Under the pieces are notes generated by a model. It worked only from the letters and a program-made list of their open reading frames with translations, was not told the DNA's origin and searched no databases. Positions 2,802-24,755 of a DNA stretch of 64,000 nucleotides are shown here, piece after piece (the first letter of the stretch is position 1; each line of letters begins with the position of its first letter). The position numbers and the translations under genes were made by a program. Origin of the DNA: Candidatus Latescibacterota bacterium (GTDB lineage Bacteria; Latescibacterota; UBA2968); assembly GCA_965208125.1 (NCBI GenBank), contig OZ242320.1, positions 3,360,001-3,424,000 of the forward strand. Reading direction: 5' to 3'.

Positions 2802-3464
2802 TCAATGCGTCAGTGCCCAGACAATGACGTTGGTGCCCATTTTGAGGGCTTCTTGTCTTTTTGCGGGCGGGTCGTTGTGTACGTCGGGATCATCCCATCC
2901 ATCGGCGATGTCGCTGCTCGTGTTGTAAAAGACGATCAGGCGGTTTTCGTGAAATAGACCCAGAGCCTGAGGTGGGTCGCCGTCGTGTTCATGGATTTTT
3001 GGCAAGCCGTTTGGAAAGTGAAACGGCGTTTTGAAGAGGCCAAAAGACGGGGGCAATTGGACGAGTTTTTTGTCGGGGAATGCGCGTTTGAGTTCCCGGC
3101 GAAAGGATTCGTCCAGGCCGTAGTCGTCGTTGGCAAAGAGAAATCCGCCGCGTTCGAGATAGAGGCGCAAACGCCGCAGTTCTTCTTCGGAGAATCGGAT
3201 GTTGCCATGTCCGGTGAGAAATAGAACGGGATAGGCAAAGAGGTGTTCGTCAGTAAGCGCGACCTGGGCTTCTTGCTCGGCGGTGTGGATGGGCGTGTGT
3301 TGTCTGATAAATGCGAGCAGGTTGGGAATTTCTGTTGGGCCATTATACCAGTCACCGCCACCGTCGTATTTGAGACGCGCTATGGTGAATGCCGCGGGCG
3401 GGTCTTGCAATTGGGCCAGGCTGGGCGCAGAGATTATCAGGAGTAGAAGGATGAAATGGCGCAT
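2802..3464 (-). CDS. DUF4159 domain protein
   Basis: Signal peptide; IARLKYDGGGDWY, LFLTGHG, GGFLFANDDYG and KIHEHDG motifs. Confidence 0.85.
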   Translation of the reverse strand: MRHFILLLLIISAPSLAQLQDPPAAFTIARLKYDGGGDWYNGPTEIPNLLAFIRQHTPIHTAEQEAQVALTDEHLFAYPVLFLTGHGNIRFSEEELRRLRLYLERGGFLFANDDYGLDESFRRELKRAFPDKKLVQLPPSFGLFKTPFHFPNGLPKIHEHDGDPPQALGLFHENRLIVFYNTSSDIADGWDDPDVHNDPPAKRQEALKMGTNVIVWALTH

Positions 3465-8369: not shown

Positions 8370-8404
8370 TTCACACTTCCTACTTCACACTTCCTACTTC
8401 CTAT
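8370..8404. repeat. Heptamer tandem repeat (TTCACAC/TTCCTAC x5)
   Basis: ttcacac ttcctac ttcacac ttcctac ttcctat. Confidence 0.7.
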
Positions 8405-9413
8405 GGTTCGTTTTCTCAAATGGTTTTTCCCGATTAGCACGGCGATTCTGATTGTTTTAGTCGCCAGTGCATACTGGTATGTGACGCCGCAACGATTAAA
8501 GGCGATTGTGCAGCCGCGTTTGTCCTCGGCTTTGGGCAGAGAGGTGATGTTTGATCATATAGATTGGGGGCTGTCTGATGGTGTGGTGTTTTCGGGTTTA
8601 AGAGTGGAAGGTCGGACTGGCGTCGGTCCCTTTTTAGTCGCGGAGCAGGCTCAGGTGTATATGTCTCGATGGAAGTTGTTGTCGGTTTTGGGCGCATTGG
8701 TGCTGGAAGGTGAGATGCCTGGGATGGGTGAGCAGAGCGATGCCGAAGGTGCGCCAATTCTATCCATAGATCGCATCCGGTTTCAGGATGGTACGTTGCG
8801 GGTGAGACGCATTGCGATTGTTTTTGATTATTTGGAGACGACTTTACTTGCCGAGAATGGGCGTGTAAATCTGGAGGCAATTCAGGGGCAGGTGTACGAG
8901 GGGACGCTTGAGGGGTCTCTGGCGTGGGATAATGGTGTGTGGGATGGGGCTGTGTCGCTTGCGAATGCCCAGGCAGAACAGGTGGCGCGTTCGATTGGCT
9001 GGGCTATTCCGCTTTACGGTGTGGTTGATATAACGGCTCAGGTTTCGGGTGCAAATGTGCGTGGCACCGCGAGTATGGACGAGGGGCGCATTGTGAAGTG
9101 GGATTTTTTGCAGCGGTTGTTGCACCCGATGGCACAATGGGGTTTGATAAATGCCGATGAGGTCCCGCTCAAAGATGTGAAGGTGATTTTTCAGGTGCAG
9201 GGCGATGAGGTGATTCTCGATGGGACACAGTTCACTGCTTCAGATATAGCTTGTGTATTAAATGGTAAGAGTGCTCAGGATCAGTTGGATTATGTGCTGG
9301 ATGTGGAAATGCCCATTCAATTCGCCGGGTTTCGCCTGGGCAGAGCCATTCCCATACGAGTAAAAATTACCGGTGCGGCAAACGCACCAGAAGTGACGGT
9401 GGAGATAAAATAG
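8403..9413 (+). CDS. AsmA-like protein
   Basis: N-terminal TM anchor, LSSALGREV segment, beta-rich body, C-terminal ITGAANAPEV. Confidence 0.65.
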   Translation: MVRFLKWFFPISTAILIVLVASAYWYVTPQRLKAIVQPRLSSALGREVMFDHIDWGLSDGVVFSGLRVEGRTGVGPFLVAEQAQVYMSRWKLLSVLGALVLEGEMPGMGEQSDAEGAPILSIDRIRFQDGTLRVRRIAIVFDYLETTLLAENGRVNLEAIQGQVYEGTLEGSLAWDNGVWDGAVSLANAQAEQVARSIGWAIPLYGVVDITAQVSGANVRGTASMDEGRIVKWDFLQRLLHPMAQWGLINADEVPLKDVKVIFQVQGDEVILDGTQFTASDIACVLNGKSAQDQLDYVLDVEMPIQFAGFRLGRAIPIRVKITGAANAPEVTVEIK

Positions 9414-9420
9414 ATTTTTT

Positions 9421-9534
9421 TTAAAGAGCCAGCACGATGACGATGACTATACCGAGCACGATCAATCCGCCAAAAAATACGATGCAGAAACCCCTGACAA
9501 ACCCGCCTACAAAACCATTGTTATTGTCGCTCAT
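9421..9534 (-). CDS. 37-aa small membrane protein
   Basis: MSDNNNGFVGGFVRGFCIVFFGGLIVLGIVIVIVLAL with upstream GGAAGGA; below the ORF-track cutoff. Confidence 0.55.
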   Translation of the reverse strand: MSDNNNGFVGGFVRGFCIVFFGGLIVLGIVIVIVLAL

Positions 9535-9585
9535 GTTTTATTCATTTCCTTCCATATCGCCGCGAACAAAACCCTGCGGGATATA

Positions 9586-10020
9586 TCATCGTAGGGGCGG
9601 TGCCCCCGTGCCCGCCCGCTTTCCCATGTCGCAGTGAACAAAGCCCTGAGAGACACTGGCCTTCAGCAGAACGGCTGGTAGCCGTTTCAGTTTTTCATTT
9701 CTCGGATCAACCTCGAATCCACCGGATTCCAAAGCGGTAACGCCGAGCAATGGTTCCGCTCCTTCTTCTCCGTACACAATGGTCCCACCGACGATTTCTC
9801 CCTCAAACTCAATCTCGGCGATGGTTATATCCATGGCCACAGGATTCCCGTCTGCAAGCACATAATCGCGACTACCCCTCGGTTCAAGTCCAATCTCTTC
9901 AAGGCGCACCCTCGGCACGAGCGAGTCGAATGCGCCAGTATCGACTAAAAATTTGCCGGTCCAGCTGCGTTGTCGATCCGCGGGATTGCGGATCGTTACG
10001 TCAACATAAGTCGCCCCCAT
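9586..10020 (-). CDS. Clan AA (retropepsin-like) aspartic protease
   Basis: FLVDTGA and PLLGVTALE motifs; AGGAG RBS before ATG 10020. Confidence 0.85.
   Translation of the reverse strand: MGATYVDVTIRNPADRQRSWTGKFLVDTGAFDSLVPRVRLEEIGLEPRGSRDYVLADGNPVAMDITIAEIEFEGEIVGGTIVYGEEGAEPLLGVTALESGGFEVDPRNEKLKRLPAVLLKASVSQGFVHCDMGKRAGTGAPPLR
9591..9617 (+). repeat. GTAG-type REP-like palindrome overlapping the protease 3' end
   Basis: Identical to 5086-5112. Confidence 0.7.
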
Positions 10021-10148
10021 GGCGATTCTCCTATTTGAAGATATAGGACAAAATTGAGTCTGTATAGGACCACCGAGCAGAATAAGAATATGGGAAAACG
10101 GACCGCAATGCAAGGTTCGATTCTTGTTCTGGCGGAATATCCTTATGA

Positions 10149-13100
10149 GTTTCAATCCGCTCCCTGTAGCGAGGTGCAGGGAGATAGACTTGTCCGCATA
10201 GTACTCGAGCAAGTCTTTCATGTTTCAATCCACTCCCCCAACTAGAGTTAGGGAGGATTGCGATTACAGAGCCTATCTCACAGATAACTATGAAGTTTCA
10301 ATCCGCTCCCGCACCGGAGTACAGAGAGATTCGCGTTCCTTGGTATTCTTAATCTCATTATTCTGGATGTTTCAATCCGCTTCCTGCACCGAAGTACAGA
10401 GAGATACTACGATCCCCTCCCTGAGTGGGCTGGATGGTGCAGTTTCAATCCGCTCCCTACACCAGAGTACAGGGAGATCTTATACAGCGCATCCTTTATG
10501 AGCCAGTGCTTGTAGTTTCAATCCGCTTCCCCAACTGGAGTTAGGGAAGATTTTGGAGATGCCAACACTGCCGGACAATTCGACGTGTTTCAATCCGCTC
10601 CCTGCACCGAAGTACAGGGAGACCCTGCGGCTGGTCGTGAACCCAGACAATATTGTCATGTTTCAATCCGCTTCCCGCACCGAAGTATAGAGAGATTTTA
10701 CGCCCGAACCGCGCTCGTTTTGTTGCTCTTCGTTTCAATCCGCTCCCTGCACCAGAGTACAGGGAGATATGGGGTTATATCCATAACGAAAGAAAAATTC
10801 ATTGTTTCAATCCGCTCCCTACACCGAAGTATAGGGAGATGTTTGCCCGATATTTGGGACAAAATATCTGTGTAGTTTCAATCCGCTCCCTACACCGAAG
10901 TATAGGGAGATCCATGATCTTGTCCTGGTCACGTTTTGGGAAATGGGTTTCAATCCGCTCCCTACACCGAAGTATAGGGAGATCACCACACCACCAGCGT
11001 CCATGCGCGTGATTGAAGGTTTCAATCCGCTCCCTACACCGAAGTATAGGGAGATAACTCAGAATATCCCCGGCGTTCCAGGTGCTGATGTTTCAATCCG
11101 CTCCCTACACCGAAGTATAGGGAGATCGGTGAGTATTGGGCTGGACGGAGAAGATGAGGACAGTTTCAATCCGCTCCCTACACCGAAGTATAGGGAGATG
11201 AAGTCACAACCGGTTGGTCAGTTGATTTTGTAAATGTTTCAATCCGCTCCCTACACCGAAGTATAGGGAGATACTGCCTGTTGCGAGCACATTGGTCCAT
11301 CCACTCCAGTTTCAATCCGCTCCCTACACCGAAGTATAGGGAGATAGGGTAAATTTTGTCATGGGGTTTCCTTTACTGGTGTTTCAATCCGCTCCCTACA
11401 CCGAAGTATAGGGAGATTGTCTGTTTGGTGGTCGCTCATCGGGCAAGACGTGGTTTCAATCCGCTCCCTACACCGAAGTATAGGGAGATTCCCCGCCCGC
11501 CTTTGTGTATGCTGGCGCGTAAACGTTTCAATCCGCTCCCTACACCGAAGTATAGGGAGATCCACATGCGGTGCCCTATTCCCGACACGGATATAGGTTT
11601 CAATCCGCTCCCTACACCGAAGTATAGGGAGATTAGTTTGCCATGATTGTGAGACAAAAGGGTGTGCAGAATGTTTCAATCCGCTCCCTACACCGAAGTA
11701 TAGGGAGATCGAGGCGAAGCGCGGCATTAAGGTGCTTCGTGATGAGGTTTCAATCCGCTCCCTACACCGAAGTATAGGGAGATCCGGCCATTCTCGGTCA
11801 GGTAATGGTTCATTCTTTGTTTCAATCCGCTCCCTACACCGAAGTATAGGGAGATAAATGGAATTACCGAAATCTAATCGTCGCTATGTATGTTTCAATC
11901 CGCTCCCTACACCGAAGTATAGGGAGATTGTGAGTAGGCATGTTTTGAAACCGCTGGAAGTGGGTTTCAATCCGCTCCCTACACCGAAGTATAGGGAGAT
12001 CTTACCGGGGCGGTCAGTGATGATGTGGTCACATTGTTTCAATCCGCTCCCTACACCGAAGTATAGGGAGATATGGACTCCATCGCGTATTTCAACTTTG
12101 TGTGGCGTTTCAATCCGCTCCCTACACCGAAGTATAGGGAGATTTCACAGATATAGAGTGTGGAAACATTATTAACACGTTTCAATCCGCTCCCTACACC
12201 GAAGTATAGGGAGATAGATTTCATTAGAATACCTTTTGGAATAAGTGTAGTTTCAATCCGCTCCCTACACCGAAGTATAGGGAGATTTTCATATTCCTTC
12301 ACTAGACCGCTCTGCAGAGGCCCTGGTTTCAATCCGCTCCCTACACCGAAGTATAGGGAGATATTCCGTGGTTCGGAGAGGATGCTTGGGAATGGGCGAG
12401 TTTCAATCCGCTCCCTACACCGAAGTATAGGGAGATGTGTTAAATACTTGGGTATATAGTCTGTCAACCGACGTTTCAATCCGCTCCCTACACCGAAGTA
12501 TAGGGAGATGGTAAACCATAATAGCCTTCCATGCCCGGAATTGCAGTTTCAATCCGCTCCCTACACCGAAGTATAGGGAGATCCCGTCCATCTTGTCCAA
12601 ATCTGCTTACAATTCGCGTTTCAATCCGCTCCCTACACCGAAGTATAGGGAGATACAAAACACTAAAACAAAAAATCTTCAGTGCGGCAGAGTTTCAATC
12701 CGCTCCCTACACCGAAGTATAGGGAGATCGTTGGATACTGGGAAGAGAACAATAATTGACAGGTTTCAATCCGCTCCCTACACCGAAGTATAGGGAGATT
12801 CCATTTAGGGATCTTTCTTCAGGTGAAGAATAAATGTTTCAATCCGCTCCCTACACCGAAGTATAGGGAGATAGATAATCCCAGAACAATCAGAGAACGA
12901 CTATCCCTGTTTCAATCCGCTCCCTACACCGAAGTATAGGGAGATGATCGTGTTTTTGAAGTATAAACAAACTGAATGAACGTTTCAATCCGCTCCCTAC
13001 ACCGAAGTATAGGGAGATCATCGTCCAAACTGTAGTGGCTGTGATTATGCAGGCTGTTTCAATCCGCTCCCTACACCGAAGTATAGGGAGATTCGCGTTC

Positions 13101-13822
13101 AGCGAAGCCAATAAACCACATGTAATGGAGTTTCAATCCGCTCCCTACACCGAAGTATAGGGAGATAAATATGATGTTTAAATCGCCAGCCGCGTCACAA
13201 AGTTTCAATCCGCTCCCTACACCGAAGTATAGGGAGATCATCGATGGATATGAGGATCACCAGAAAATAATGAAGTTTCAATCCGCTCCCTACACCGAAG
13301 TATAGGGAGATTGGGACCTGGGGTATAACCCGGCGGGACTGAAAGAGTTTCAATCCGCTCCCTACACCGAAGTATAGGGAGATTCAAGGAACAGGGGTTC
13401 TTGTCGAATGAATCAAAATGTTTCAATCCGCTCCCTACACCGAAGTATAGGGAGATGTCGCATAATCTGCAAGCCCAGCATCGACATGTGCGGTTTCAAT
13501 CCGCTCCCTACACCGAAGTATAGGGAGATTTTTCATCTGCGCTTGATATGTCGAAAACAGAGACCGGTTTCAATCCGCTCCCTACACCGAAGTATAGGGA
13601 GATATCATATCAATGTTCAAACGGGGAAAATCTATTACCAGTTTCAATCCGCTCCCTACACCGAAGTATAGGGAGATAAATAACAAGCATCTGAACCTTG
13701 AATCGCCAAAAGGTTTCAATCCGCTCCCTACACCGAAGTATAGGGAGATGCCTCATTCATTGTCAGACGTTTCATCTCGCAATATGTTTCAATCCGCTCC
13801 CTACACCGAAGTATAGGGAGAT
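10149..13822 (-). CRISPR. CRISPR array: 51 repeats and 50 spacers (34-39 bp); 37-bp repeat ATCTCCCTATACTTCGGTGTAGGGAGCGGATTGAAAC on the crRNA strand
   Basis: 42 identical repeats from 10804 to 13822 plus 9 variant repeats from 10149 to 10768; ATTGAAAC end; leader adjacent to cas2. Confidence 0.98.
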
Positions 13823-14002
13823 ACTGGTTGTTGTAACCAGCGTAATACCAAAAGGTTATACAAGTGGATGCGCGAATCTCCTTTCTTACACATCCTTCGA
13901 TTAAAGTGAGAGCAACAAACTTGCTGTAAATAGTTGTTAGTCATAGGTTTGTAAATTGCGCGAAAGTAGGGGCAAAACGCCGTCACTTTACTTTCGCGCC
14001 AG
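13823..14002 (-). promoter_or_regulatory. CRISPR leader
   Basis: Non-coding segment between cas2 and the first repeat; inverted repeat GCGCGAAAGTA/TACTTTCGCGC; two IHF-like sites. Confidence 0.8.
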
Positions 14003-14290
14003 TTAAAAAATCAGTGGTTCGTTTAAGTCCACGGGTTCTTTAAGCCCGTGATGCTCTATCTTGTTTTTGGCGTCTTCGTCCAGGTGATAGATCCTGAGAG
14101 AATCTTGCTTGGGATCTATTTCTTCCAGCAGACGGGTCTTGAGTTCCGCCCATTCTGTTTTTCCCACCTGACATTCAAAAAGCGATTTTTGAGCACGGAC
14201 ACCATAATCCTTACAGGCTCTCGCCACTCGCCGCAGCCGCCTTTGTCCTGCTCGGTCAGTTGTGGAAACATCATAAGCAATCAGTTTCAA
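14003..14290 (-). CDS. cas2: CRISPR-associated endonuclease Cas2
   Basis: IAYDVST...RRLRRVARACKDYGVRAQKSLFEC...DSLRIY; TTG start with AAGGAG RBS. Confidence 0.95.
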   Translation of the reverse strand: MKLIAYDVSTTDRAGQRRLRRVARACKDYGVRAQKSLFECQVGKTEWAELKTRLLEEIDPKQDSLRIYHLDEDAKNKIEHHGLKEPVDLNEPLIF

Positions 14291-14326
14291 TTTTTTCTCC
14301 TTACCGAAACAAGTGGCGATACTGCG

Positions 14327-15412
14327 TTATTTTATGATAAATGGAATATAGTCGGGAATATCGCCGCGGAGTTTTCGGGCCAATAATTTAGCTTGAATGC
14401 TGAACACTTGCCCTATGCGGATATTCTGCTTGAACAAAGGGTGCTTTACTTCTGTTTGCTTGCGCCGTTGCCAGGCCTGAATAACCTCTCTTCTACCATG
14501 ATCGGTAAACTCTACGGCACCGCCCTCTCGTTCGCGGAAGTGCTTAGGCTCGATTTGGCGGCGGTTGATCAGAGTCAGTGCCAGCCGCTCTGCCAAACAG
14601 GGACGAAATTCTTCCATCAGATCCAGGGCACAAGCCGGCCTTCCCGCGCGTGTTGCATGAAGCCAGCCGACATAAGGATCTAACCCGGCGGTTGTCAATG
14701 CGGCCAGGCAATCGTGACGAACCAGGGCATATATAAAGGAAAGCAAGCAGTTTACCCGATCTCGGGGCGGTCGCCGTGTGCGGTTTACAAATTTGAAGTT
14801 TTCTCGTTGCTGTTTGAGCATGTATTGGAATACCGAAAAATAGATTTTTGCTCCCAGACCTTCCAATCCTCTGATAGGATCAAGTGTCTCCCGAAGTCCG
14901 CAATCTGGATCAACGGACGAAGCGTCTTCCGGCTCAGCCTCAAGTGCAACTGAAAGTTGGCGGATCAATCGGGCGAGTTCATCAGCCGCTCCCGCCAATT
15001 TCGCTCGGTCCGAATCTATATCGGCTTCCCGAGCAGATCGCAAGAGGTTGGAACGCGAGTTCTGTAATTTCCCGGCGACAAATTGCCGAGCCAGACGAGC
15101 CGCGTCTTCTGGGCTGTCCGCTGCTGCGTACTGAGCACGACGCAGCAAGTAGCGGGTATCTCCGCTTCCTATGACTTGTGCCAGCAGGTAGCCATTTTCT
15201 GTATGATAATGTACGGCCACTTGATGCGCCCAGCACAAAGCCATAGCTGGCGGCGTAACCACGACCTGCCCGAAAGCGCAAATACTTTCCAGATGGTGAA
15301 TCGGAACGGTCAGACGGGTTTGCTTTTCGATCTCAATCCGAAGCGTTAAGTGGTCTCTGAGCACTACGGTTTTTGGTGTCGTCAGATAAAGTGTATTTTG
15401 AATGATAGCCAT
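14327..15412 (-). CDS. cas1: CRISPR-associated endonuclease Cas1 (I-C type)
   Basis: NTLYLT, RGLEG, RRPPRDRVN, GLDPYVG and LALDLMEEFR-like motifs. Confidence 0.97.
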   Translation of the reverse strand: MAIIQNTLYLTTPKTVVLRDHLTLRIEIEKQTRLTVPIHHLESICAFGQVVVTPPAMALCWAHQVAVHYHTENGYLLAQVIGSGDTRYLLRRAQYAAADSPEDAARLARQFVAGKLQNSRSNLLRSAREADIDSDRAKLAGAADELARLIRQLSVALEAEPEDASSVDPDCGLRETLDPIRGLEGLGAKIYFSVFQYMLKQQRENFKFVNRTRRPPRDRVNCLLSFIYALVRHDCLAALTTAGLDPYVGWLHATRAGRPACALDLMEEFRPCLAERLALTLINRRQIEPKHFREREGGAVEFTDHGRREVIQAWQRRKQTEVKHPLFKQNIRIGQVFSIQAKLLARKLRGDIPDYIPFIIK

Positions 15413-15420
15413 ACGTGGTT

Positions 15421-16059
15421 TTAATCCCCTCCCGATGAATCGGCAGTATCAAAAACTTGCCGATAGGCACGCGCCAGCGTGGGAGGAACGCTGGTGATCT
15501 CGGGAAGACAATAATCAAAAAGCGAACACTCAGAACACTGGGGCTTATGGATGGCATTTGGGACGACTTCCTTTTCAATGAGCCGATGCATGGCTTCAAT
15601 GGCCTGTTCGGTAAAATGGCGCAATTTCTCTGTGAACACTATCTTTCGGCGGCGTTTGCTCCTGGCGTGAAAGATGGCACCCTGAGAAATATCCAACCCG
15701 AACATTTCTTCGAGGCACAGAGCCTGCGCGCAAAGCTGGGCGTCGTCATTGTCGAATTTGCGCCGTCTGCCTTTTTTGAACTCGACAGGAACCAACGAAC
15801 CATCGGAATGACGTTCAACAATGTCGCATCTGCCGCTGAGACTGAGCCGATCAGACCAGATGGGCAAAGCACGCAGCAAGGTGACGCCTCTGATGTTTTC
15901 ATAACCCGAAACATCGGCCTGTTCGTGAACACTACCGCCGATCACGGTGTGCTCGTTGGTCCCTCGCCACCCCTCAATCGCCTTCAATGCCGCCCGACGT
16001 TGACAATAGAGGTAGTCGTTGAGGAGTGAGAGGGGAATGGGATCGTGGAGATTTATCAT
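15421..16059 (-). CDS. cas4: CRISPR-associated exonuclease Cas4
   Basis: YCQRR, DIVE..PVEFKKG, QLCAQALCLEEM and CSECSLFDYC motifs. Confidence 0.95.
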   Translation of the reverse strand: MINLHDPIPLSLLNDYLYCQRRAALKAIEGWRGTNEHTVIGGSVHEQADVSGYENIRGVTLLRALPIWSDRLSLSGRCDIVERHSDGSLVPVEFKKGRRRKFDNDDAQLCAQALCLEEMFGLDISQGAIFHARSKRRRKIVFTEKLRHFTEQAIEAMHRLIEKEVVPNAIHKPQCSECSLFDYCLPEITSVPPTLARAYRQVFDTADSSGGD

Positions 16060-16133
16060 ATTGACACTTCACTATTCCTAAACGCATTGAGTTCCACAAC
16101 ATCCTTTATTATTTTATTCAGGTTAGTATTAAT

Positions 16134-18371
16134 TCATAACATGTACCCGTCTGCGCCACCATCAACGAGCGGGAGCACACCCGCCATGAATCCTAAAAAG
16201 GGATCGTAATCAAGTTCCCATGAGAATAGTCCAGGCAGGCGGTCGAACTCGCGCAGTGCCCATTCTGTGGCGCGTGATCCATATATCTGTACGCTTCCAT
16301 TTTGAAGATCTTGAGTCAGAACATGTTGGTCGTATTCAATTTTTTCTTTTATGGACTCATCAACTACGGCTGTCAATGTTGGTGAATCTATGACTCGAAA
16401 TAGTTCGGCAACCTTTGGAAAGTTCAGAGCATCCTCGGCTTTTAGCAACTCATCCTTTTGCAGCCGTGATCGACGAATCTCACGTCGTAGTGCCTCGGTA
16501 CAGGCACTCACTCCAACTTGCCTTTCATTGAACAACTCTCCCAATACTGCGGATGAATATTCAAATGTCGGATGGGGTCGGAGCCACGAGTCATGGGCCA
16601 ACTGAATGTCCCAAACATCGGCAGACTCATATTCCCTTCCACGGTTTACTCGACCAGCGATTTGCAAGAGACTATTCAAGCAAGCACGCTCGCGGATGCC
16701 CGTCCGAAATGAAAAATCAACTCCAGCTTCAACACAGGAAGTCGCTACGAGTGTCCAATCTCGATCATCATCGTTCGATAACCGATCAATAACTCGATTC
16801 AGAGTAATCGCGCGGTCAGTTGGTATGAGTGCCGTTGAGAGATGTTCTACTTGAGGGTGATTCGATTGCCAGTTGTTTTGATGCTTCCAGTTAGCAAGAT
16901 GTCTTGCGATAACGGCAGCCGATTGCACAGTGTTCACAATGAGCAGACGTGGACCTGGCAGTTGAAGTAACCACGGCTTTAGTGTTTTCAAACTCATGGG
17001 TTCAGGATGAGATTGATAGGTGACACGCGTCGCCTCGCGATCCAGACTTTCATCTCGCACGCGCATATCTACCAGATCAGGCACAGTCGGGAGGGGATCA
17101 ACAAACTCAGGCAATTCCCAGAAGCGGCTCAATGAACCTGACCCAACAACGAAGTAACAGCCCCAGTCGGTTTTCAAGTCCTGTAACCACTTCCATGTGA
17201 TCGGCCACAAATGCGCTGGCAGCGCGGCGTGGGCCTCGTCGACAAAGATCGCAGAGCCAGCGACTTGATGGAGTTTTCGCAATGCTCCAGTTCGACAGGC
17301 GGCAAGAGTTTCAAAAAACTGAACGGCGGTTGTCACAACGATGGGAGTGTTCCATAGATAGGTCAGATGTCGAGTCGCAAGACTGTTGAATTCCGCACGG
17401 TGATGGTGGGCTGCGACAACACGTTCGGGATTCTCATCTGCTCTGACGAGTGATTCTCGATACACCCGGACTGACTGGTCAATGATATTTGTATATGGCA
17501 GGACTATAAAAATCCGACGTAGTTTTTGTGTAGCCGCTACATTCAGTAGATGTGCCATGATTGCCGTTGTCTTTCCAGAACCAACTGGTGAATCGCAGGC
17601 CACCAATGATTCACTAAATGGATCTGCATTGCGGCAAGCGCGATAAACATCCTGTCTCAGTTGCGTGCGTTCGTCTTCTTTGTTCTCAGATAATCCAGCG
17701 ACGTATTGATCCAGAAGCTCGAGCCGTATAGCTGGCTCAAGTTTCGGACTCGTAACAGAAAAAGCTTGTCCATAATTCCGCGCTGTATCAAAATGATCGG
17801 CATCAACAAGACAGGACAACGCCAAACGGAGCAATACAGATAGATCGCTTTGGCGTTGCTTATTTAAGTCTATTGATTGCCTTGTGCTTGCGAATACCGA
17901 TTGGTGCATACGCAAGTATTCGTCTAACTGTTTGTCAGTGTGATCTTTTGTCGTTCGTCCAGATTCGTCCCGCTCTAAATCGCGAAATGGTCGCCCAGCT
18001 TCTCGTGTACTATGTTCGGTGATATCCGGTAGTCCACGGTGGTGTGAGAAGATGAGAATGGCCGCCAACTGTGCGGCCATTTGCGGCGGATCTTTCAGTA
18101 AATTAGCCACTCCCGCATCAACGTGATTCACTGGCAGACGACCACTGCCACCTACTGAAAGAACCGCTTGGTTCTCAGGATCAAGTTTGCCGAGATCGTG
18201 AAATTCGGCTGCCAAATCAACAGCTAACTTGAATAATTGACCATCAGTAGCGGTAGCAGTCAGTTCATTAGCATGTCGGACTGCCAACTTAATAACGTTC
18301 TCCAGATGTTCGGAATACGGTTGAGCTGGAATCTCGTTCTCTGGCTGCGGACTATGTGCGAGCAACATCAC
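16134..18371 (-). CDS. cas3: CRISPR-associated HD nuclease/helicase Cas3
   Basis: AHS..EHL, HDLGK, SHH, LVDAD, PVGSGKT, DEAH and QIAGRVNR motifs. Confidence 0.95.
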   Translation of the reverse strand: MMLLAHSPQPENEIPAQPYSEHLENVIKLAVRHANELTATATDGQLFKLAVDLAAEFHDLGKLDPENQAVLSVGGSGRLPVNHVDAGVANLLKDPPQMAAQLAAILIFSHHRGLPDITEHSTREAGRPFRDLERDESGRTTKDHTDKQLDEYLRMHQSVFASTRQSIDLNKQRQSDLSVLLRLALSCLVDADHFDTARNYGQAFSVTSPKLEPAIRLELLDQYVAGLSENKEDERTQLRQDVYRACRNADPFSESLVACDSPVGSGKTTAIMAHLLNVAATQKLRRIFIVLPYTNIIDQSVRVYRESLVRADENPERVVAAHHHRAEFNSLATRHLTYLWNTPIVVTTAVQFFETLAACRTGALRKLHQVAGSAIFVDEAHAALPAHLWPITWKWLQDLKTDWGCYFVVGSGSLSRFWELPEFVDPLPTVPDLVDMRVRDESLDREATRVTYQSHPEPMSLKTLKPWLLQLPGPRLLIVNTVQSAAVIARHLANWKHQNNWQSNHPQVEHLSTALIPTDRAITLNRVIDRLSNDDDRDWTLVATSCVEAGVDFSFRTGIRERACLNSLLQIAGRVNRGREYESADVWDIQLAHDSWLRPHPTFEYSSAVLGELFNERQVGVSACTEALRREIRRSRLQKDELLKAEDALNFPKVAELFRVIDSPTLTAVVDESIKEKIEYDQHVLTQDLQNGSVQIYGSRATEWALREFDRLPGLFSWELDYDPFLGFMAGVLPLVDGGADGYML

Positions 18372-19225
18372 TCCTCCATCAAATCCCGAATTTTTGCGAC
18401 ACGAGCGGCTAATTCACCAGGCAACTCTGTGGGCACAATGTAATCAGCCCAAGCATTCGAAGGTGAGTCGGAATTGCCATTCTTCTTTGGCGTCAATGCT
18501 TCTATAATCGCGAAATCGGAGCAGGATCCCAGCACTGATTTGTGTTCAACTACCCAGGCGTGACGTAGATCGACAAGCGGTCGGGCATGAGACCGAGTAT
18601 GTGCGTAGGCGTGAGGGATGACTTTGAACAACAAGTCAATATCTTGCTGTGTGCAACCCGATTTGTGGGCCACGGATGGGTTAATAAAAAACGGCATGCA
18701 ATAGACACCATGTGGTACAAAGCGATATCCCATCGGTGCCATGCCACGGTCTTTACCTTCTTGCACTCCAGCTTTATTTGTATTAGTATGGCGACTGATT
18801 TCGATAGGGGCTACGCTTAGTCCAAGACCGAATTGAGCCACACCTGTCTTGATCGTGTCAGCGGATCCTTCTTCCAAGAAAGTGTTCCCGAACACGCGGC
18901 CATCCCAATATTTGGCTTGAAATGATCCGTTTTTCAATTCACCTTCAATCGTCTTGCGAACCCGCCCACGCGACTCAAGGATCGCAAATTGTTCATCATT
19001 CAGGTTCATTTCCTTCTTCATAACTTGCCAAACAGTCCCATCCTTTGATTCGATCAAATCACGCACTTTGCGTTTGAATGAAACAGGAGAAATTTCTCCT
19101 CGACCATCAGGGCGTTGCCGAGGATCGCTCTCACGGTCTGGATCGCCGTTGGGATTGGAATTGACGACTTCTATGACCAGAAGTCCCGTAAATCGTTTTA
19201 CGTCATTGGCGTTAGTATCTGTCAT
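18368..19225 (-). CDS. cas7: Cas7 (Csd2/Csh2 family)
   Basis: NSNPNGDPD..PR, SFKRKVRD and DGRVFG motifs. Confidence 0.92.
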   Translation of the reverse strand: MTDTNANDVKRFTGLLVIEVVNSNPNGDPDRESDPRQRPDGRGEISPVSFKRKVRDLIESKDGTVWQVMKKEMNLNDEQFAILESRGRVRKTIEGELKNGSFQAKYWDGRVFGNTFLEEGSADTIKTGVAQFGLGLSVAPIEISRHTNTNKAGVQEGKDRGMAPMGYRFVPHGVYCMPFFINPSVAHKSGCTQQDIDLLFKVIPHAYAHTRSHARPLVDLRHAWVVEHKSVLGSCSDFAIIEALTPKKNGNSDSPSNAWADYIVPTELPGELAARVAKIRDLMEE

Positions 19226-19226
19226 T

Positions 19227-19631
19227 CTACTCTCCTTCAGTTAAGGCATTAGACGAATCGTCGTTAGATTTTTCCTTTTCAGAACGGGCGAGGTACCCAA
19301 GCAGCATGGCGACCTTGTCGGTATCTGAACACCGACTCGGCACATCCGTGTCGGAAAGTGACGCGCATACGCGCCCCATCTCACTGAGGAAATACTTGGC
19401 GAGACGCACTTCATCACCGCCTTGGACTGTTTGTGCCCAAGCGTGATAGGGCTTGATGCGCTGCCACAACAAGGCGAGAGCCTTTTCGGGTGTTTCCATC
19501 GCACTTGTCATGAGGGCGTTGCCCACCAGTTGAGGTGGTATTTGGTCCTTGCGTACTTCACGACAATACTGAACATGTAATTGATCGGCTAAACTCAGTA
19601 GGCGACCAATCAGATAAGGTGGGCTCTTCAT
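19227..19631 (-). CDS. cas11: Putative internally translated Cas11 small subunit (134 aa) within cas8c
   Basis: In-frame ATG at 19631 preceded by AAGAAAGGA-atttat; reads MKSPPYLIGRLLSLAD... Confidence 0.65.
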   Translation of the reverse strand: MKSPPYLIGRLLSLADQLHVQYCREVRKDQIPPQLVGNALMTSAMETPEKALALLWQRIKPYHAWAQTVQGGDEVRLAKYFLSEMGRVCASLSDTDVPSRCSDTDKVAMLLGYLARSEKEKSNDDSSNALTEGE

Positions 19632-21356
19632 ATAAATTCCTTTCTTGTAGTCGAGTTTTCCAAGTAGTAATCCGAGAATCTGGGGAAGCAACAGTGCTTG
19701 CTTACCGTAAATCTTTCCTATAGGGTGAACCTTTCCTTGGTGGGCAGCTTGTCCGAGCGTAAGTAGAAGTGATAACGAATTACTGGTGATCGCCCGAACT
19801 GCCCTCATAGTGACCGCTTGCAGGATTGGCCCCTCTTCTAAGAGTAACGCTAGGCCATCCGAAATCTGGAAGTCAAAAGCAATTTCCGCATGTGTGCCCA
19901 TTCGCTTCCAGATCGTGTTTAGACACCAAACCACTTCAGATGGATAGGGTATTAGTGGACGCTTCCAGACGGATTTCTCACCTTTCTGAGAACCGAATTG
20001 ACGAATCATTACTGGCGGCGAATCGCGACATAGTGCTTGCCATTCGTCAGCACTGTTGAGCAGATGTTGAACGGTATAGCGACTGCTGTGTAGCACCTTG
20101 GTCCGAAAGCCATCAGGCTTAGTTAGGACAAAAATGCGCAGTTCAGCATTTCGTGACGATGCAGATTGTCCCTTGAGAGTCTCGGTAACACGACGTGCAC
20201 ATGCCTCAAAACGTAAACCATCGGGATCGGATTGTTCTCTTTTATCGCCGAATAACCCCGCGAGCTCAGGTGTTTCTGTAGGCAGTTCGGAGGGATAGAC
20301 GATCAACATTGCCGACGCATCACCACCGAGCGAGGAAACGTCACACCATGTTTTGCCACGTCGTTCATCTCTTGTGATCCATTCCAGAGCGTTTTTCAGG
20401 TTTTGACGTACTGGCTGCGAGACTTGGAAAGATTTGGCTTCAGCCAGACCATACCGCCGCTGACACGGCGATTCGCCAGACATTGCATGGAGTTTTACAT
20501 TACCCATTACCGACATCTTAACTTCGGGAAACTTGTCATTCATTCCACCGCCTTCCATCGCAAAGGCATCTGTCGCACCTTCGTATCTCTCTTTTTCTAA
20601 GGTTTCCATAGCTAGCAGGCGGTCACTTACCCAAGTTTGAACTTCTGGATGGTTGGCTGGATACGCAAATTGTGATTGATCAACGAGTTCCAGGGTGATC
20701 GCTATATTCTTTGGTGTCTTCCCGGAATGGAAGAACAAAACATCCATCCATTCAGCAGCTTCTGATTGGTCGGACTTTATCCTCTGGATCGCGATTTCTT
20801 TCAATTGTTCATGCAGTGCAGCCCCATTCGTCTTCTTCGCGCGACGCAACAATTCTACAAATGATCGTGATTCAGGGGTACCTTCATCCAAAACTACTGT
20901 TAGATCTTGAGTGACTGAGGATAAACAATCATTCAATTTGTCCATTGCATCTTTGCTGCGTGCGCTTTTTTCGGGGCGAATCCAACCCGACGTACTAACC
21001 GACAGTAGGTGTACCAATTCCTCGTCACGCATCAAGGCATCCGGAGGCTTTTTCGATCCCAATAATTTTTTAAATTTAGCCGCACGTTCCTTTTTCTCAT
21101 CGTTTTCGAACTGTAGCAATGGCGGTACATTGAACGATGGAAACGAGTAACCAGCCGCTTTTTCGTATTTCCGCAATCCTGCACGAATTTGCGGATCGGT
21201 AATCGGCGAAACTTGGGCAACCTGTCCTTGAGTATCGAGTTCGACAAAGAATGCTTTTCCTCCTTGCGGGCATTCTTTGAAGTGCCGATGCCAAGACTGA
21301 AGTTTGACGCCGGTCCGTTCCAGACTCTTGTAAAGAAGAAAGAGTTCATTTATCAT
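19227..21356 (-). CDS. cas8c: Divergent Cas8c-like large subunit
   Basis: Lies between cas5 and cas7; MINEL N-terminus; C-terminal YLIGRLL helical domain. Confidence 0.75.
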   Translation of the reverse strand: MINELFLLYKSLERTGVKLQSWHRHFKECPQGGKAFFVELDTQGQVAQVSPITDPQIRAGLRKYEKAAGYSFPSFNVPPLLQFENDEKKERAAKFKKLLGSKKPPDALMRDEELVHLLSVSTSGWIRPEKSARSKDAMDKLNDCLSSVTQDLTVVLDEGTPESRSFVELLRRAKKTNGAALHEQLKEIAIQRIKSDQSEAAEWMDVLFFHSGKTPKNIAITLELVDQSQFAYPANHPEVQTWVSDRLLAMETLEKERYEGATDAFAMEGGGMNDKFPEVKMSVMGNVKLHAMSGESPCQRRYGLAEAKSFQVSQPVRQNLKNALEWITRDERRGKTWCDVSSLGGDASAMLIVYPSELPTETPELAGLFGDKREQSDPDGLRFEACARRVTETLKGQSASSRNAELRIFVLTKPDGFRTKVLHSSRYTVQHLLNSADEWQALCRDSPPVMIRQFGSQKGEKSVWKRPLIPYPSEVVWCLNTIWKRMGTHAEIAFDFQISDGLALLLEEGPILQAVTMRAVRAITSNSLSLLLTLGQAAHQGKVHPIGKIYGKQALLLPQILGLLLGKLDYKKGIYMKSPPYLIGRLLSLADQLHVQYCREVRKDQIPPQLVGNALMTSAMETPEKALALLWQRIKPYHAWAQTVQGGDEVRLAKYFLSEMGRVCASLSDTDVPSRCSDTDKVAMLLGYLARSEKEKSNDDSSNALTEGE

Positions 21357-21993
21357 AGAGTAGGACTCCATTTTCGATTACGACGTTTTGTCGAAATGTG
21401 GGCTGATAAGTACCAAATTTTGGTTCGGAGAAGACGGAGTGTAGCATGCTTGGAATGACGGTGTTGATTTTTTGACAGACCTTAGTCTCGTCACGAAATG
21501 GTCCTACATAACTTGGCGTAAACTCCTTCCATCCCAAGCAGGGAATAGAATGCCATTGACCACGCATCAATCGGCGTCCAAATATATCTCGATATGCGTG
21601 TGCCCCATTGCGAGAAAGAGTAGGCGATTGCTTCGCGCGTTCTGACAGTCTCCGCATGCCAGGATCCACGGTGACCACCTCAGCGTATAGCCGATAGTTG
21701 ACATTGATCAACACTGTCGCCAGTAGTTGGTAGCTACTTCCCTGCTGCATTATTCTGCTCTTACGCAGAGGCCCGCCATAGTTTGTCGAATATGTGTGGA
21801 ATACAAGAGGTGTGCAGATTTCAACCTTAATTGGCACGACGTGAGCAGACTTGAGCCAACAGATTGATTCAAACATGCCCTTTGCTGCTGAAAATGTTGG
21901 CACCGGATAGCTAACAGGAGCATCACCAGTATCAGGCCGAGTCCACATGGCCGTTGGTCCGGCGATTTCGAATTGCACTGTGTAGGATTTCAT
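21346..21993 (-). CDS. cas5: Cas5 (I-C type, likely pre-crRNA processing)
   Basis: GPTAMWTRP..SYPVPTFSAAKGMFESI and PCLGWKEF; GGAG RBS before ATG 21993; no cas6 in the locus. Confidence 0.9.
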   Translation of the reverse strand: MKSYTVQFEIAGPTAMWTRPDTGDAPVSYPVPTFSAAKGMFESICWLKSAHVVPIKVEICTPLVFHTYSTNYGGPLRKSRIMQQGSSYQLLATVLINVNYRLYAEVVTVDPGMRRLSERAKQSPTLSRNGAHAYRDIFGRRLMRGQWHSIPCLGWKEFTPSYVGPFRDETKVCQKINTVIPSMLHSVFSEPKFGTYQPTFRQNVVIENGVLLYDK

Positions 21994-22106
21994 TATATTC
22001 TCCAAATGTATTACCGAAATTTCGAGCTGGAAGGATTTGCAGAATTCACCAAATATAGTGCAAATATGTTCACTAAACAAGAAAATTTTGAACCTACGAT
22101 ATCCTC

Positions 22107-22171
22107 AAAAGAAATGGTAGAGGAAGGATGTGTATAGAATGGATTGGAGACTATGACGTTGTTCTGATTCC
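22107..22171 (+). repeat. Imperfect ~65-bp direct repeat, left copy
   Basis: Roughly 80% identical by eye to 22667-22731; core AATGGATTGGAGACTATGAC is identical. Confidence 0.8.
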
Positions 22172-22228
22172 ATGATAATTCCGTGCAAAAAAGTTGCTTT
22201 TCGTTCCGAAGTTGGCTATATCTTATTC

Positions 22229-22288
22229 GGCGACCAGATGGGCCGGTGTCAACCGACCCAGGACAATGTCCCTGGCCGCTACTTTTTT
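22229..22288. ncRNA. Candidate three-way-junction structured RNA
   Basis: Three nested helices followed by a T6 tract (details in findings). Confidence 0.4.
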
Positions 22289-22345
22289 GATCTCCTGCTC
22301 ATATATTTTCCCTTTACCGCTTGCGTGAAAAAAGAGGAGTTATTC

Positions 22346-22546
22346 ATGCTCCGCACAGCTTTGGGCATTGTGAGAGACGGTAAAATCGAAATTTTAGAAC
22401 ACATTGCATTACCTGAAGGACAAAGGGTATTGGTCACCATGTTGCCCAACGATGATATTTTTTGGCGGGAAGCCAGCCAGGAAACCCTGAAACAGATTTG
22501 GAACAATAAAGAGGACGATGTGTATGCCCGATTACTTGATAAATGA
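22346..22546 (+). CDS. DUF104/AF2212-like antitoxin
   Basis: GIVRDGKIEILE...LPEGQRVLV; C-terminal W..KEDDVY; GAGGAG RBS. Confidence 0.7.
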   Translation: MLRTALGIVRDGKIEILEHIALPEGQRVLVTMLPNDDIFWREASQETLKQIWNNKEDDVYARLLDK

Positions 22547-22697
22547 TATTAAACCATTGTTGAAGCAGAATGGACAAACGACAGACGCCGATATTGCAAA
22601 ACAGCGGGAAACTGCTCGGCGTATGCGCGAAGCACGCGATAAAATGCCTCCACTTGATATGTCAATAAAAGAGATGGTGGAGGAAGGGCGTGTGTAA
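22524..22697 (+). CDS. 57-aa antitoxin-like protein
   Basis: MPDYLINDIKPLLKQNGQTTDADIAKQRETARRMREARDKMPPLDMSIKEMVEEGRV; the 'IKEMVEEGR' tail resembles Phd/VapB-type antitoxin C-termini. Confidence 0.5.
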   Translation: MPDYLINDIKPLLKQNGQTTDADIAKQRETARRMREARDKMPPLDMSIKEMVEEGRV

Positions 22698-22731
22698 TAA
22701 TGGATTGGAGACTATGACTTTGCTCTGATCC
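22667..22731 (+). repeat. Imperfect ~65-bp direct repeat, right copy (includes the WYL stop codon)
   Basis: Matches 22107-22171. Confidence 0.8.
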
Positions 22732-23704
22732 TCTGATTACTTCCCTTCTCATACATCCTCCCCGCCGCGATCATATCCTTTGCGATGACCTGTCGCAATT
22801 CCTCTGGTTCTATCACCTCGCAATCTGCGCCCCAGCCCCTGATCCAGGGTTTCATTTCCAGCGTGTGACTCACGGTTAATGTCATGAGACAGCCGCCGTC
22901 TGGCAGGTCGTCAATGGTATCGACGCAGGGCCAGTCCGATTCCCGCACGCGGTAGGCCACATTGGGCGAGAATCGGAGTTTGACGACAATGCGTTCATCG
23001 CCACCCATGACGCCCCAGGCTTGCGTGAGATAATCGTAGGGGTCAAAATTGTCGCGAATCTCATAAGATGATTCGAGGATTTTGACCTGCTGCACGCGCT
23101 CGATTTTGAACTCTCGGATGTCGTGGCGCAGATGGTCATACCCGATTACATAACAGGCATATCCCACGGGCGAAGGTTCGATAAAATAAGGGTCAAAGAC
23201 GCGCCTGGTGGTTTCATCGGTGTATGGATTGTAATACGTCAAACGCACCTGTTTGCGTTCAGACCACGCGCTGGTGAATGTTTCCAAAATGCGGATGTAC
23301 TCGCGATGCGGTCTGCGCTTGTGCGTGGCTTCGGCGGTTCGGGTGATGTGTTGACCGATTGATTCGGGAAGCGCGCTGGCGAGTTTTTCAAGTGCCGAGA
23401 CGACATGGGGATTGTGTTTGTCGCTGTGCGCTGAGAGCAATCGGGCTGAGAGATACAGTGCGAGGGATTCGTGCAAGTTCACGCGCACAGATGTGATATA
23501 GCGATCTTTCACAACGCCAAAATGGTGGTCTTCTTCCCAAATCGGCACGCCAGATCGCTCAAGAGAACGCAAGTCGCGATAAGCAGTTGTGCGGTGATAC
23601 CCAAAGCGTTCAGCAATTTCACGAGCAGTTAGCCCTCGAGAAGATTGAAAAAGCAAGTTTTCCAGCATTTTGAGTCGTTCTGCGCGGGTTTCGTCGCGGT
23701 CCAT
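22712..23704 (-). CDS. HTH-WYL-WCX transcriptional regulator
   Basis: N-terminal HTH (TAREIAERFGYHRTTAYRDL), R.FDPY, YVIGYD..REFKIERV and WIRGWG; GGAGG RBS. Confidence 0.92.
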   Translation of the reverse strand: MDRDETRAERLKMLENLLFQSSRGLTAREIAERFGYHRTTAYRDLRSLERSGVPIWEEDHHFGVVKDRYITSVRVNLHESLALYLSARLLSAHSDKHNPHVVSALEKLASALPESIGQHITRTAEATHKRRPHREYIRILETFTSAWSERKQVRLTYYNPYTDETTRRVFDPYFIEPSPVGYACYVIGYDHLRHDIREFKIERVQQVKILESSYEIRDNFDPYDYLTQAWGVMGGDERIVVKLRFSPNVAYRVRESDWPCVDTIDDLPDGGCLMTLTVSHTLEMKPWIRGWGADCEVIEPEELRQVIAKDMIAAGRMYEKGSNQRIRAKS

Positions 23705-23736
23705 AAAACCTCCTGTGTGACAATATAAGACATGGG

Positions 23737-23755
23737 TGTTGCGACTTTCGCTACA
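23737..23755. promoter_or_regulatory. Imperfect palindrome, putative WYL operator
   Basis: TGTTGCGA-CTT-TCGCTACA about 35 bp upstream of the WYL start. Confidence 0.45.
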
Positions 23756-23833
23756 TATAATAAAAAAATCGTGGGATGGGATAAACGGAATCAAAATAGA
23801 GCGCGTTGAGGGTGGGGTTTTAGAGAGGGAAAG

Positions 23834-24319
23834 TTATGGCAGGATAGCGTATTGATCGACAAATTCAGCAGGAGACAAGATGGGAATATTTTGGTATGAA
23901 CCCAAATTCTTAAGATGACGGTCACCAGAGACAATGCACTCGGCTTGAGACTCAACCGCGGCGATGATGACAGTATCGTCTTCGGAGTCGGCTTCAATAG
24001 TTTTGATATCTAAAACGCCAGGGGTGACTCGTGCCTGTCGGCGTAAGGAGCGTAGAAAATCTTGAATTTGTTCGCCAACATCATCAGGGGAAAAGCGGGC
24101 CGAAAGAAACCGGAACAGTGCTGGGCGGTGCAAAACCTCATCTATTTTGTCTATCATAGACTCGGATAGTGCGATAACGAGTTCATCTCGCTTCCAGGCA
24201 GATAAAATACGAGCCGGGGGAGCGAAGTCCTCCCGCCGGCTAATAAGAGCAGAGATCAAAACATTAATATCAAGCACCACCACGGGGCGCGGGTTATCAG
24301 GTGGTTGGGTATTGGGCAT
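23834..24319 (-). CDS. PIN-domain putative toxin
   Basis: VVLDINVLISA, DSEDD and IVSGDRHL motifs. Confidence 0.88.
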   Translation of the reverse strand: MPNTQPPDNPRPVVVLDINVLISALISRREDFAPPARILSAWKRDELVIALSESMIDKIDEVLHRPALFRFLSARFSPDDVGEQIQDFLRSLRRQARVTPGVLDIKTIEADSEDDTVIIAAVESQAECIVSGDRHLKNLGSYQNIPILSPAEFVDQYAILP

Positions 24320-24339
24320 TTACTCGCTTTGCATATGAG

Positions 24340-24612
24340 TTAGCGTTTCACTTCATCTACAGCCTGATCTATCCTGGCGGATAAGTCATCCACATCTTTG
24401 AAAGCTTCTGCTACGCGATCAAAAACGGCAAAATCTTCAGCTTTCTGACGCATATAAGTCCTGTAAGATGCGTAGCGTTCTGCTGGCAATAAAACAGCTA
24501 CTGTTTGGCCTCGGTCATTTTTGACTTCACAGGTTTCGTCAGTAGAACAAAGCGATTGAACAAGCTGACGAAATTTGCTATCACTGTCTTTGAGGTTTAA
24601 AACTTGAGACAT
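24340..24612 (-). CDS. Phd/YefM-like antitoxin
   Basis: F.QLV...RGQTVAVLLPAERY; directly upstream of the PIN gene. Confidence 0.7.
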   Translation of the reverse strand: MSQVLNLKDSDSKFRQLVQSLCSTDETCEVKNDRGQTVAVLLPAERYASYRTYMRQKAEDFAVFDRVAEAFKDVDDLSARIDQAVDEVKR

Positions 24613-24755
24613 AACCAATCCCCCGAGGTTTCGGCCTATTCATCAAAGATTAAAGCACATATAATTGAGAATATACTACAATACACAGGTAGATGCAACG
24701 CACGTAATAAAGTAACCCATTTACGCTTGCCAAGCTGCCGAACCTGCGCGCGGTT

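Follow-up and report, generated by a model that had tools for sequence, protein, structure and literature searches.

Nine unlike repeats at the old end of a type I-C-like CRISPR array: a probable mosaic of formerly live repeat alleles

The window analysed here, 64,000 nucleotides (nt) of the forward strand of contig OZ242320.1 (positions 3,360,001 to 3,424,000; assembly GCA_965208125.1) from a Candidatus Latescibacterota bacterium, holds a CRISPR array beside cas genes that, judged by their sequence, we would call a type I-C-like system. The genome is one contig of 5.75 megabases (Mb), and this is its single array with this repeat. The 42 repeats on the leader side are identical to each other and are referred to as allele A, or the modern repeat. 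The nine repeats of the opposite, trailer end differ from one another and from allele A; they are lettered, with their positions, in Table 1. We consider these nine units to be, probably, the old end of a working array, a palimpsest of formerly live repeat alleles that was built by turnover of the leader-side allele, recombination between arrays and collapse of blocks of identical repeats. The variants would then mostly be former live alleles, rather than locally decayed copies of the modern repeat.

The modern repeat folds into a hairpin with a 2-nt 5′ overhang, a 10-base-pair (bp) stem that includes one U·G pair, a tetraloop and an 11-nt 3′ overhang. On the minus strand, the strand of the CRISPR RNA (crRNA), it ends in a motif typical of processed 5′ handles. 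This modelled geometry matches the description of a Cas5c substrate in PMC8524198 (which, like the other publications named below, is cited from excerpts of its text). A reading of the sequence alone had proposed the 10-bp stem with its tetraloop, and the fold bears this out, just as the listing of the repeats bears out the proposal that the nine trailer repeats are all different and the next 42 identical. All of its more specific observations were reproduced. Repeats B (10732) and C (10587) show a double change from A-U to G-C, repeat D (10515) is fully paired despite four altered pairs, and repeat D′ (10222) belongs to the family of D with three repeats of the other family lying between them. 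Mismatches or a bulge are present, as described, in the repeats at 10149, 10222, 10295, 10369 and 10660. The G-C state, at pair 9-20 of the stem, extends to five repeats; the repeat at 10442 has a G·U intermediate at this pair and the repeat at 10660 an A·C mismatch. The handle had been called invariant, and its last ten letters are indeed unchanged in all nine repeats; D′ alone is altered at position 27, the first letter of the 11-nt handle, and it is changed at position 4 as well.

Minimum-energy folding gave the full canonical hairpin in four of the nine variants (10442, 10515, 10587 and 10732) and the hairpin in part in four others, and the repeat at 10660 folded otherwise. By the rules for Cas5c, the pairs at the cut site and the handle are kept in eight of the nine repeats, and we infer from this modelling that processing of most trailer units into crRNAs probably continues.

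The search for alleles A, B and C covered metagenomes and genomes from the class, and both scans of the genome_contigs collection were devoted to the D family. A genome of the same genus (G004) carries the orthologous array, its trailer-side flanks being 87.2% and 83.3% identical to those of the window and 1,967 nt that span the leader and cas2 and reach into cas1 being 89.6% identical. From trailer to leader, the G004 array comprises two relics, an old allele that is two letters from window repeat E (10369), a hybrid repeat, seven allele A units (six exact copies and one with a single change) and, at the leader end, a block of 32 copies that are letter-identical to window repeat B (10732). 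All five repeats of the metagenome contig L024 are also allele B, and they stand beside a leader ∼92% identical to the leaders of the window and of G004. Alleles A and B differ at four positions, namely one compensated pair and two loop letters, and both are ‘live’ in this group. The order of the two, from old to new, is B then A in the window genome and A then B in G004. Opposite orders in two species that have no spacer in common cannot be produced by point mutation within one line of descent, and segment replacement by recombination can produce them. The alleles common to this array and other lineages thus stand in an order beyond the reach of any one line of descent, as recombination between arrays would leave them.

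The hybrid repeat of G004, at the junction of its oldest allele and its allele A block, is an exact left/right hybrid of the two. This is the product expected from a crossover within the repeat; a mutational intermediate would look alike. The same spacer is present in two successive allele A units of G004 (L016, reverse strand, 2935-3078), a tandem duplication of a unit, so unequal recombination does occur within this uniform block. The 50 spacers of the window array are each unique, and none is common to this array and the nine fetched loci of relatives.

The trailer repeats are also reticulate and periodic. In a four-gamete test on the window versions together with the G004 variants, 13 of the 28 informative column pairs showed all four combinations. 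A simple record of leader-side mutation, in which a variant is carried by all later repeats (pattern 1 of Ou and McInerney), is seen in the 42 consecutive copies of allele A, and the nine trailer repeats depart from it. Repeats four units apart lie at a mean distance of 3.6, compared with 7.0-9.0 for the remaining offsets (P = 0.005 by permutation, or 0.016 when offsets 1-5 are allowed for), with four differences for 10222/10515 and for 10295/10587, two for 10369/10660 and one for 10442/10732. The spacers at the same offset are unrelated, with only 7-16 of 35-36 letters matching. The simplest account of the period would be two trailers with the same succession of alleles and different surviving spacers that were joined, as far as so few pairs can indicate. 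An old tandem duplication of a four-unit block was ruled out by the unrelated spacers, the best pair (16/36) being equalled or exceeded by 16 of all 1,225 spacer pairs.

The placement of the changes is not random. Compared with the modern repeat, the nine variants show 51 differences in all, of which 41 are transitions, nine transversions and one a deletion, and none of the 51 falls in the last ten letters of the handle. When the differences were placed at random, the handle was spared in 0 of 10,000 simulations, and a conservative count based on the 22 distinct column states still gave P ∼0.001 for an untouched handle. Pairing is kept in 83 of the 90 stem cells, a level reached by seven of 10,000 simulations with the changes limited to columns 1-27 and by 207 of 10,000 with the changes falling over all 37 columns. 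In an alignment of the ten repeat versions, 93.9% of 99 cells are paired and four pairs are changed on both sides; none of 500 shuffles equalled the alignment in its share of paired cells or in its covariation score, and in slid controls 45-58% of cells were paired. The independent compensatory events behind these figures are few, being the switch at pair 9-20 and, common to the two repeats of the D family, four altered pairs.

The repeat family is widespread, since a covariance model built from the ten versions matched 55 of the 132 class genomes scanned; the loci seen through it are the 30 returned, as samples of 3 kilobases (kb) rather than whole arrays. Across the class, live repeats of the family vary within this same stem and remain paired, and the handle is common to all. 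Whole arrays from six relatives are far more uniform than the window trailer, variant repeats numbering three in G010 (193 repeats), each one letter off, one in G018 (256 repeats), none in G057 (109 repeats), none in G045 (37 repeats), two in G043 (31 repeats) and three in G031 (20 repeats). The altered terminal repeats of G004, G018 and G043 are changed in the handle, and the two further relics of G004 have heavily changed handles. Since decay has hit the handle in these relatives, the nine window repeats are unlike decayed repeats of this family.

A simpler case of the same mechanism is found in G031 and G048. Their trailer-most units (L017, 2056-2165, and L020, reverse strand, 2229-2265, respectively) carry a loop variant that G043 and G045 have uniformly as their live repeat. 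All repeats after them carry a one-letter change, so that the propagation of a change in the leader-side repeat is cleanly seen here. The live repeat of G031 and G048 is the nearest live allele to D, at five letters, and is seven from D′. Two pairs, both fully compensated, and a single loop letter separate it from D, and D is thus by its sequence a sister allele within the family, neither a decayed copy of A nor an alien repeat.

These observations can be combined in one scheme. Only repeat versions that fold and keep the 11-nt handle read by Cas5c and Cascade can be propagated. The repeat added with each acquisition is a copy of the leader-side template (bioRxiv 10.1101/2022.05.19.492656). 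Leader-side copying would thus place strong selection on the template, so that alleles come to differ by compensated stem changes and by loop changes, and never in the handle. The leader-side allele would have been replaced several times, at least partly through recombination with the arrays of related lineages. Blocks of identical repeats would then have shrunk by repeat-repeat recombination to about one unit each, with unlike neighbours surviving, and two runs of the same allele order would have been joined. A few in-place changes, the mismatches and the bulge, would have been added, and the 42 identical allele A repeats would be recent growth. Assembly of the trailer from different arrays by recombination had been one suggestion of the sequence-only reading, and it is supported by the identity of 10732 with the live repeat of two lineages, the reversed allele order, the reticulation and the four-unit period with unrelated spacers.

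Several points weigh against this scheme. No recombination event was seen directly, since no strain of the same species was found, the stretch occurring only in runs of one sample. The four-unit period is based on five pairs with a corrected P of ∼0.016, and reticulation in 37-nt sequences can also arise by recurrent mutation at a few sites. Close foreign counterparts were found only for B (exact), B′ (one letter from B) and E (two letters from a G004 trailer repeat), and C, C*, E′ and T are two to five letters from any foreign repeat seen (C* three from B). The expectation that arrays with a trailer variant as their consensus exist elsewhere held for B, which is live in G004 and L024, and failed for D and D′, for which the collections searched yielded no live array. 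Exact scans, two of genome_contigs and one of metagenome_contigs, gave 0 hits, and with up to three mismatches allowed D and D′ were unmatched among 52 further genomes from the order and 131 from the class. No D-like allele was present among the 30 covariance-model loci returned, the nearest being five letters away. Finally, about six pair-breaking events in the 20 stem letters stand against none in the ten handle letters, where about three hits would be expected if the changes were neutral and in place (P ∼0.05), and this leaves room for some in-place constraint.

A stronger form of such constraint is that the nine crRNAs are still useful, as long-lived or regulatory guides, with purifying selection acting on each unit and with the compensatory changes arising in situ. 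This would explain why the handle is intact in all nine repeats when the terminal repeats of three related arrays have handle changes, why pairing is above that of random placement and why handle hits are slightly below the prediction from stem breaking (∼3 expected, none seen). The stem covariation from which a maintained sub-array had been proposed is, however, what would be expected of variants that had each served earlier as a working repeat on the leader side, and five of the nine repeats have mismatches or a bulge, one of them no longer folding canonically. The identity of allele B with a live repeat elsewhere is also too much for a coincidental local origin, and no strain shows conserved trailer spacers, no strain of the same species being in the comparison. 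The idea of regulatory guides found no support in the spacers. Within the genome, the nine trailer spacers gave only exact matches of 14-15 letters, 12 in all and without regard to protospacer-adjacent motif context, a rate close to that of the other 41 spacers and to chance in a 5.7-Mb genome, and no spacer of the array matched the phage or plasmid collections. No RNA runs were listed for the array stretch, and X4 and X6 gave only repeat-like pieces with two or three differing letters from other organisms. Selection in place as the main cause is thus judged unlikely. Another version of selection, which we regard as quite unlikely, keeps the two stacked runs of one four-allele succession (D′, C*, E and B′, then D, C, E′ and B) from diverged lineages and adds that they have been retained as a deletion-proof store of old guides; if true, the array would have an organized ‘archive’ compartment with evolutionary rules of its own.

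Unlike repeats might also have been selected as an anchor, blocking repeat-repeat recombination and so protecting the array from collapse, as the sequence-only reading suggested when it spoke of diversification to resist deletion. Every pair of neighbouring trailer repeats does differ, by 3-14 letters, and the review PMC8047081 discusses, in the part cited here, how polymorphism of terminal repeats lowers the chance of collapse. Survivorship without selection gives the same pattern, however, and is the better reading of it. Six of the nine variants keep their first 16 plus-strand letters unchanged, so slippage is still possible, and related arrays of 109-256 repeats persist with zero to three variants. 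An adaptive anchor therefore seems very unlikely. A neutral process in which copies of the modern repeat decayed, retaining pairing and handle through chance and transition bias, would fit the 41 transitions among 50 substitutions, often wobble-preserving, and the common degeneracy of trailer ends (PMC8047081 and PMC4466440, in excerpt). It fails in the simulations described above, both for the spared handle and for pairing with the handle excluded, and it does not account for a variant that is the live repeat of another lineage. As an explanation of the whole block it is highly improbable and was rejected, though it may hold for a handful of pair-breaking changes. An artefact of assembly or sequencing is the least credible reading, and is extremely improbable. 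Arrays are hard to assemble, and short-read contigs collapse the 42 identical repeats, but the variants lie between unique spacers, and contigs from two runs, both of one sample that may be the source and is therefore not fully independent, span 10030-10832 and 10030-10840 with zero differing letters.

The features of the array and its cas locus are collected in Table 1.

Table 1. Positions in the window of the array, its trailer repeats and the adjoining cas genes; differences are counted from the modern repeat and pairs are those of its 10-bp stem
Feature	Position	Strand	Description
CRISPR array	10149-13822	minus (crRNA strand)	51 repeats, all 37 nt long except one of 36; 50 spacers, each 34-39 nt; leader end at 13822
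Trailer block	10149-10768	minus	nine mutually different repeats and their spacers
Repeat T (terminal)	10149-10185	minus	6 differences; 8/10 pairs; folds as 7-bp stem with 10-nt loop; handle intact
Repeat D′ (TAAC/GTTG family)	10222-10258	minus	12 differences; 9/10 pairs
Repeat C*	10295-10330	minus	36 nt; one-letter deletion giving a bulge; G-C at pair 9-20
Repeat E	10369-10405	minus	4 differences; one C·A mismatch; 2 letters from oldest intact repeat of G004
Repeat B′	10442-10478	minus	one letter from allele B; G·U at pair 9-20; full hairpin
Repeat D (TAAC/GTTG family)	10515-10551	minus	10 differences; 10/10 pairs kept, four of them altered
Repeat C	10587-10623	minus	3 differences; G-C at pair 9-20; full hairpin
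Repeat E′	10660-10696	minus	4 differences; two mismatches (A·C at pair 9-20); 2 letters from repeat E
Repeat B	10732-10768	minus	identical to the repeat that is live, in 32 copies, in G004 and, in 5 copies, on metagenome contig L024
Allele A block	10804-13822	minus	42 identical repeats (starts 10804 to 13786), 41 spacers
Leader	13823-14002	minus	between cas2 and first repeat
Adaptation genes	14003-16059	minus	cas2 14003-14290; I-C type cas1 14327-15412; cas4 15421-16059
Effector genes	16134-22080	minus	cas3 16134-18371; cas7 18368-19225; cas8c-like 19227-21371; cas5 of Cas5c/Cas5d kind 21346-22080

The trailer is a clear, somewhat unusual and well-documented instance of known array dynamics, and no new kind of system. 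Polymorphism of terminal repeats, as described in excerpts of PMC8047081 and of a Streptococcus agalactiae survey (PMC4466440), is likewise leader-distal, in the oldest part of the array, and in PMC8047081 unlike repeats are expected to resist recombinational loss, as here. In these descriptions usually one repeat is degenerate, at its 3′ end, whereas here nine consecutive repeats vary, the 3′ handle is untouched and most have the hairpin. The copying of a leader-side change into later repeats is shared with the arrays of Ou and McInerney (bioRxiv 10.1101/2022.05.19.492656), where non-monotonic patterns are attributed, in the text cited, to flip-flops, internal insertion or recombination within and between arrays. 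The present case differs in having an outside reference, two alleles in opposite order in related species, together with a four-unit allele period, and in having multi-site alleles that differ by compensated pairs rather than by single point changes. Kunin et al. 2007 (PMC1896005) described compensatory changes among repeat clusters, with stem covariation that includes G·U pairs and with conservation at the 3′ end of repeats, from consensus repeats compared, in the part cited, between genomes, while here the covarying versions stand side by side in one array. In Legionella pneumophila, patterns of repeat polymorphism were taken as traces of array collapse and regrowth (Deecker and Ensminger 2020, as reported in the review PMC8047081); here only blocks would have collapsed, and no reduction to a single repeat is implied. 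We found no paper on opposite allele order between sister species or on a periodic succession of trailer alleles, in searches that were aimed elsewhere and whose coverage lay outside subscription journals.

One array and one sister lineage therefore display repeat evolution under the double demand of copying and processing, with alleles that differ by compensated pairs and move between lineages. Old ends of arrays can be mosaics and not simple time lines, which calls for caution in using spacer order as a chronology. The nine natural repeat variants also form a set for probing the tolerance of Cas5c and of the integrase.

The cas genes agree in part with type I-C. Cas1 scored 414 bits with TIGR03640 against a curated cut-off of 385, and is thus of the I-C kind, and cas2 scored 58 bits (cut-off 24.5). 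Cas5 matched Pfam Cas_Cas5d (39.7, cut-off 23) and scored 42.8 with NCBIfam Cas5c, below the cut-off of 85. Cas7 matched Pfam Cas_Cas7 (176, cut-off 33.2) and scored 125 with NCBIfam Csd2, below the cut-off of 182. The match of the Cas8c-like protein is weak, both NCBIfam Csd1 (43, cut-off 219) and Pfam Csd1 (21.2, cut-off 27) falling below cut-off. No match to the Cas6 families was seen among the 13 open reading frames (ORFs) of the window that were scanned (8403-26126). The 2-nt 5′ overhang, the hairpin and the 11-nt 3′ overhang are likewise those of type I-C (Dvulg) with processing by Cas5c, as excerpted from PMC8524198, to which are added the Cas1 at curated I-C score, the Cas5 of Cas5c/Cas5d kind, Cas7 and Cas4, with no Cas6 seen among the ORFs scanned. 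The characterized I-C repeats in that text are, however, 32 nt long with a 7-bp stem and a pentaloop, against 37 nt, 10 bp and a tetraloop here, and the Cas5c, Cas7 and Cas8c matches lie below NCBIfam curated scores.

The order of the operon is cas5, cas8c-like, cas7, cas3, cas4, cas1 and cas2. The canonical type I-C order puts cas3 first, and this order was not found, cas3 sitting between cas7 and cas4 instead of heading the operon. Upstream of cas5 are genes for an HTH-WYL-WCX regulator (22712-23794) and a PIN-domain protein (23834-24319).

Allele A has a -10-like hexamer in the 5′ arm of its stem that is absent from alleles B and C. A consensus promoter scan gave 15 hits, compared with a mean of 5.8 in shuffles, and 13 of the 15 use this hexamer. 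The same scan gave no hit for an internal promoter inside the trailer block or at its edge. Among all 1,225 spacer pairs, those at 10331-10368 and 13093-13129 are the most alike, sharing their first eight letters and 19 positions, which is probably chance.

Beyond the terminal repeat at 10149 no further decayed repeat was detected, 729 of 2,000 shuffles scoring as well. A stretch of 24 letters on the plus strand (10114-10137), 11 nt past the terminal repeat, matches a second repeat type at 19 of 24 positions, which five of 2,000 shuffles equalled. In G031 this second type makes up a separate array next to the I-C-like one, and it occurs in single copies near the I-C-like arrays of G048 and G043; the stretch may, from this likeness, be a relic of a neighbouring array. 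The flank shared with G004 reaches to about 580 nt from the array in the window and to about 260 nt, with two decayed repeats, in G004. The listed ORF at 9586-10221 (minus strand), which lies within the stretch that has no alignment to G004, overlaps the last repeat units; its match to clan AA aspartic proteases begins at residue 72, and an in-frame ATG at 10020 with an upstream GGAG is its likelier start.

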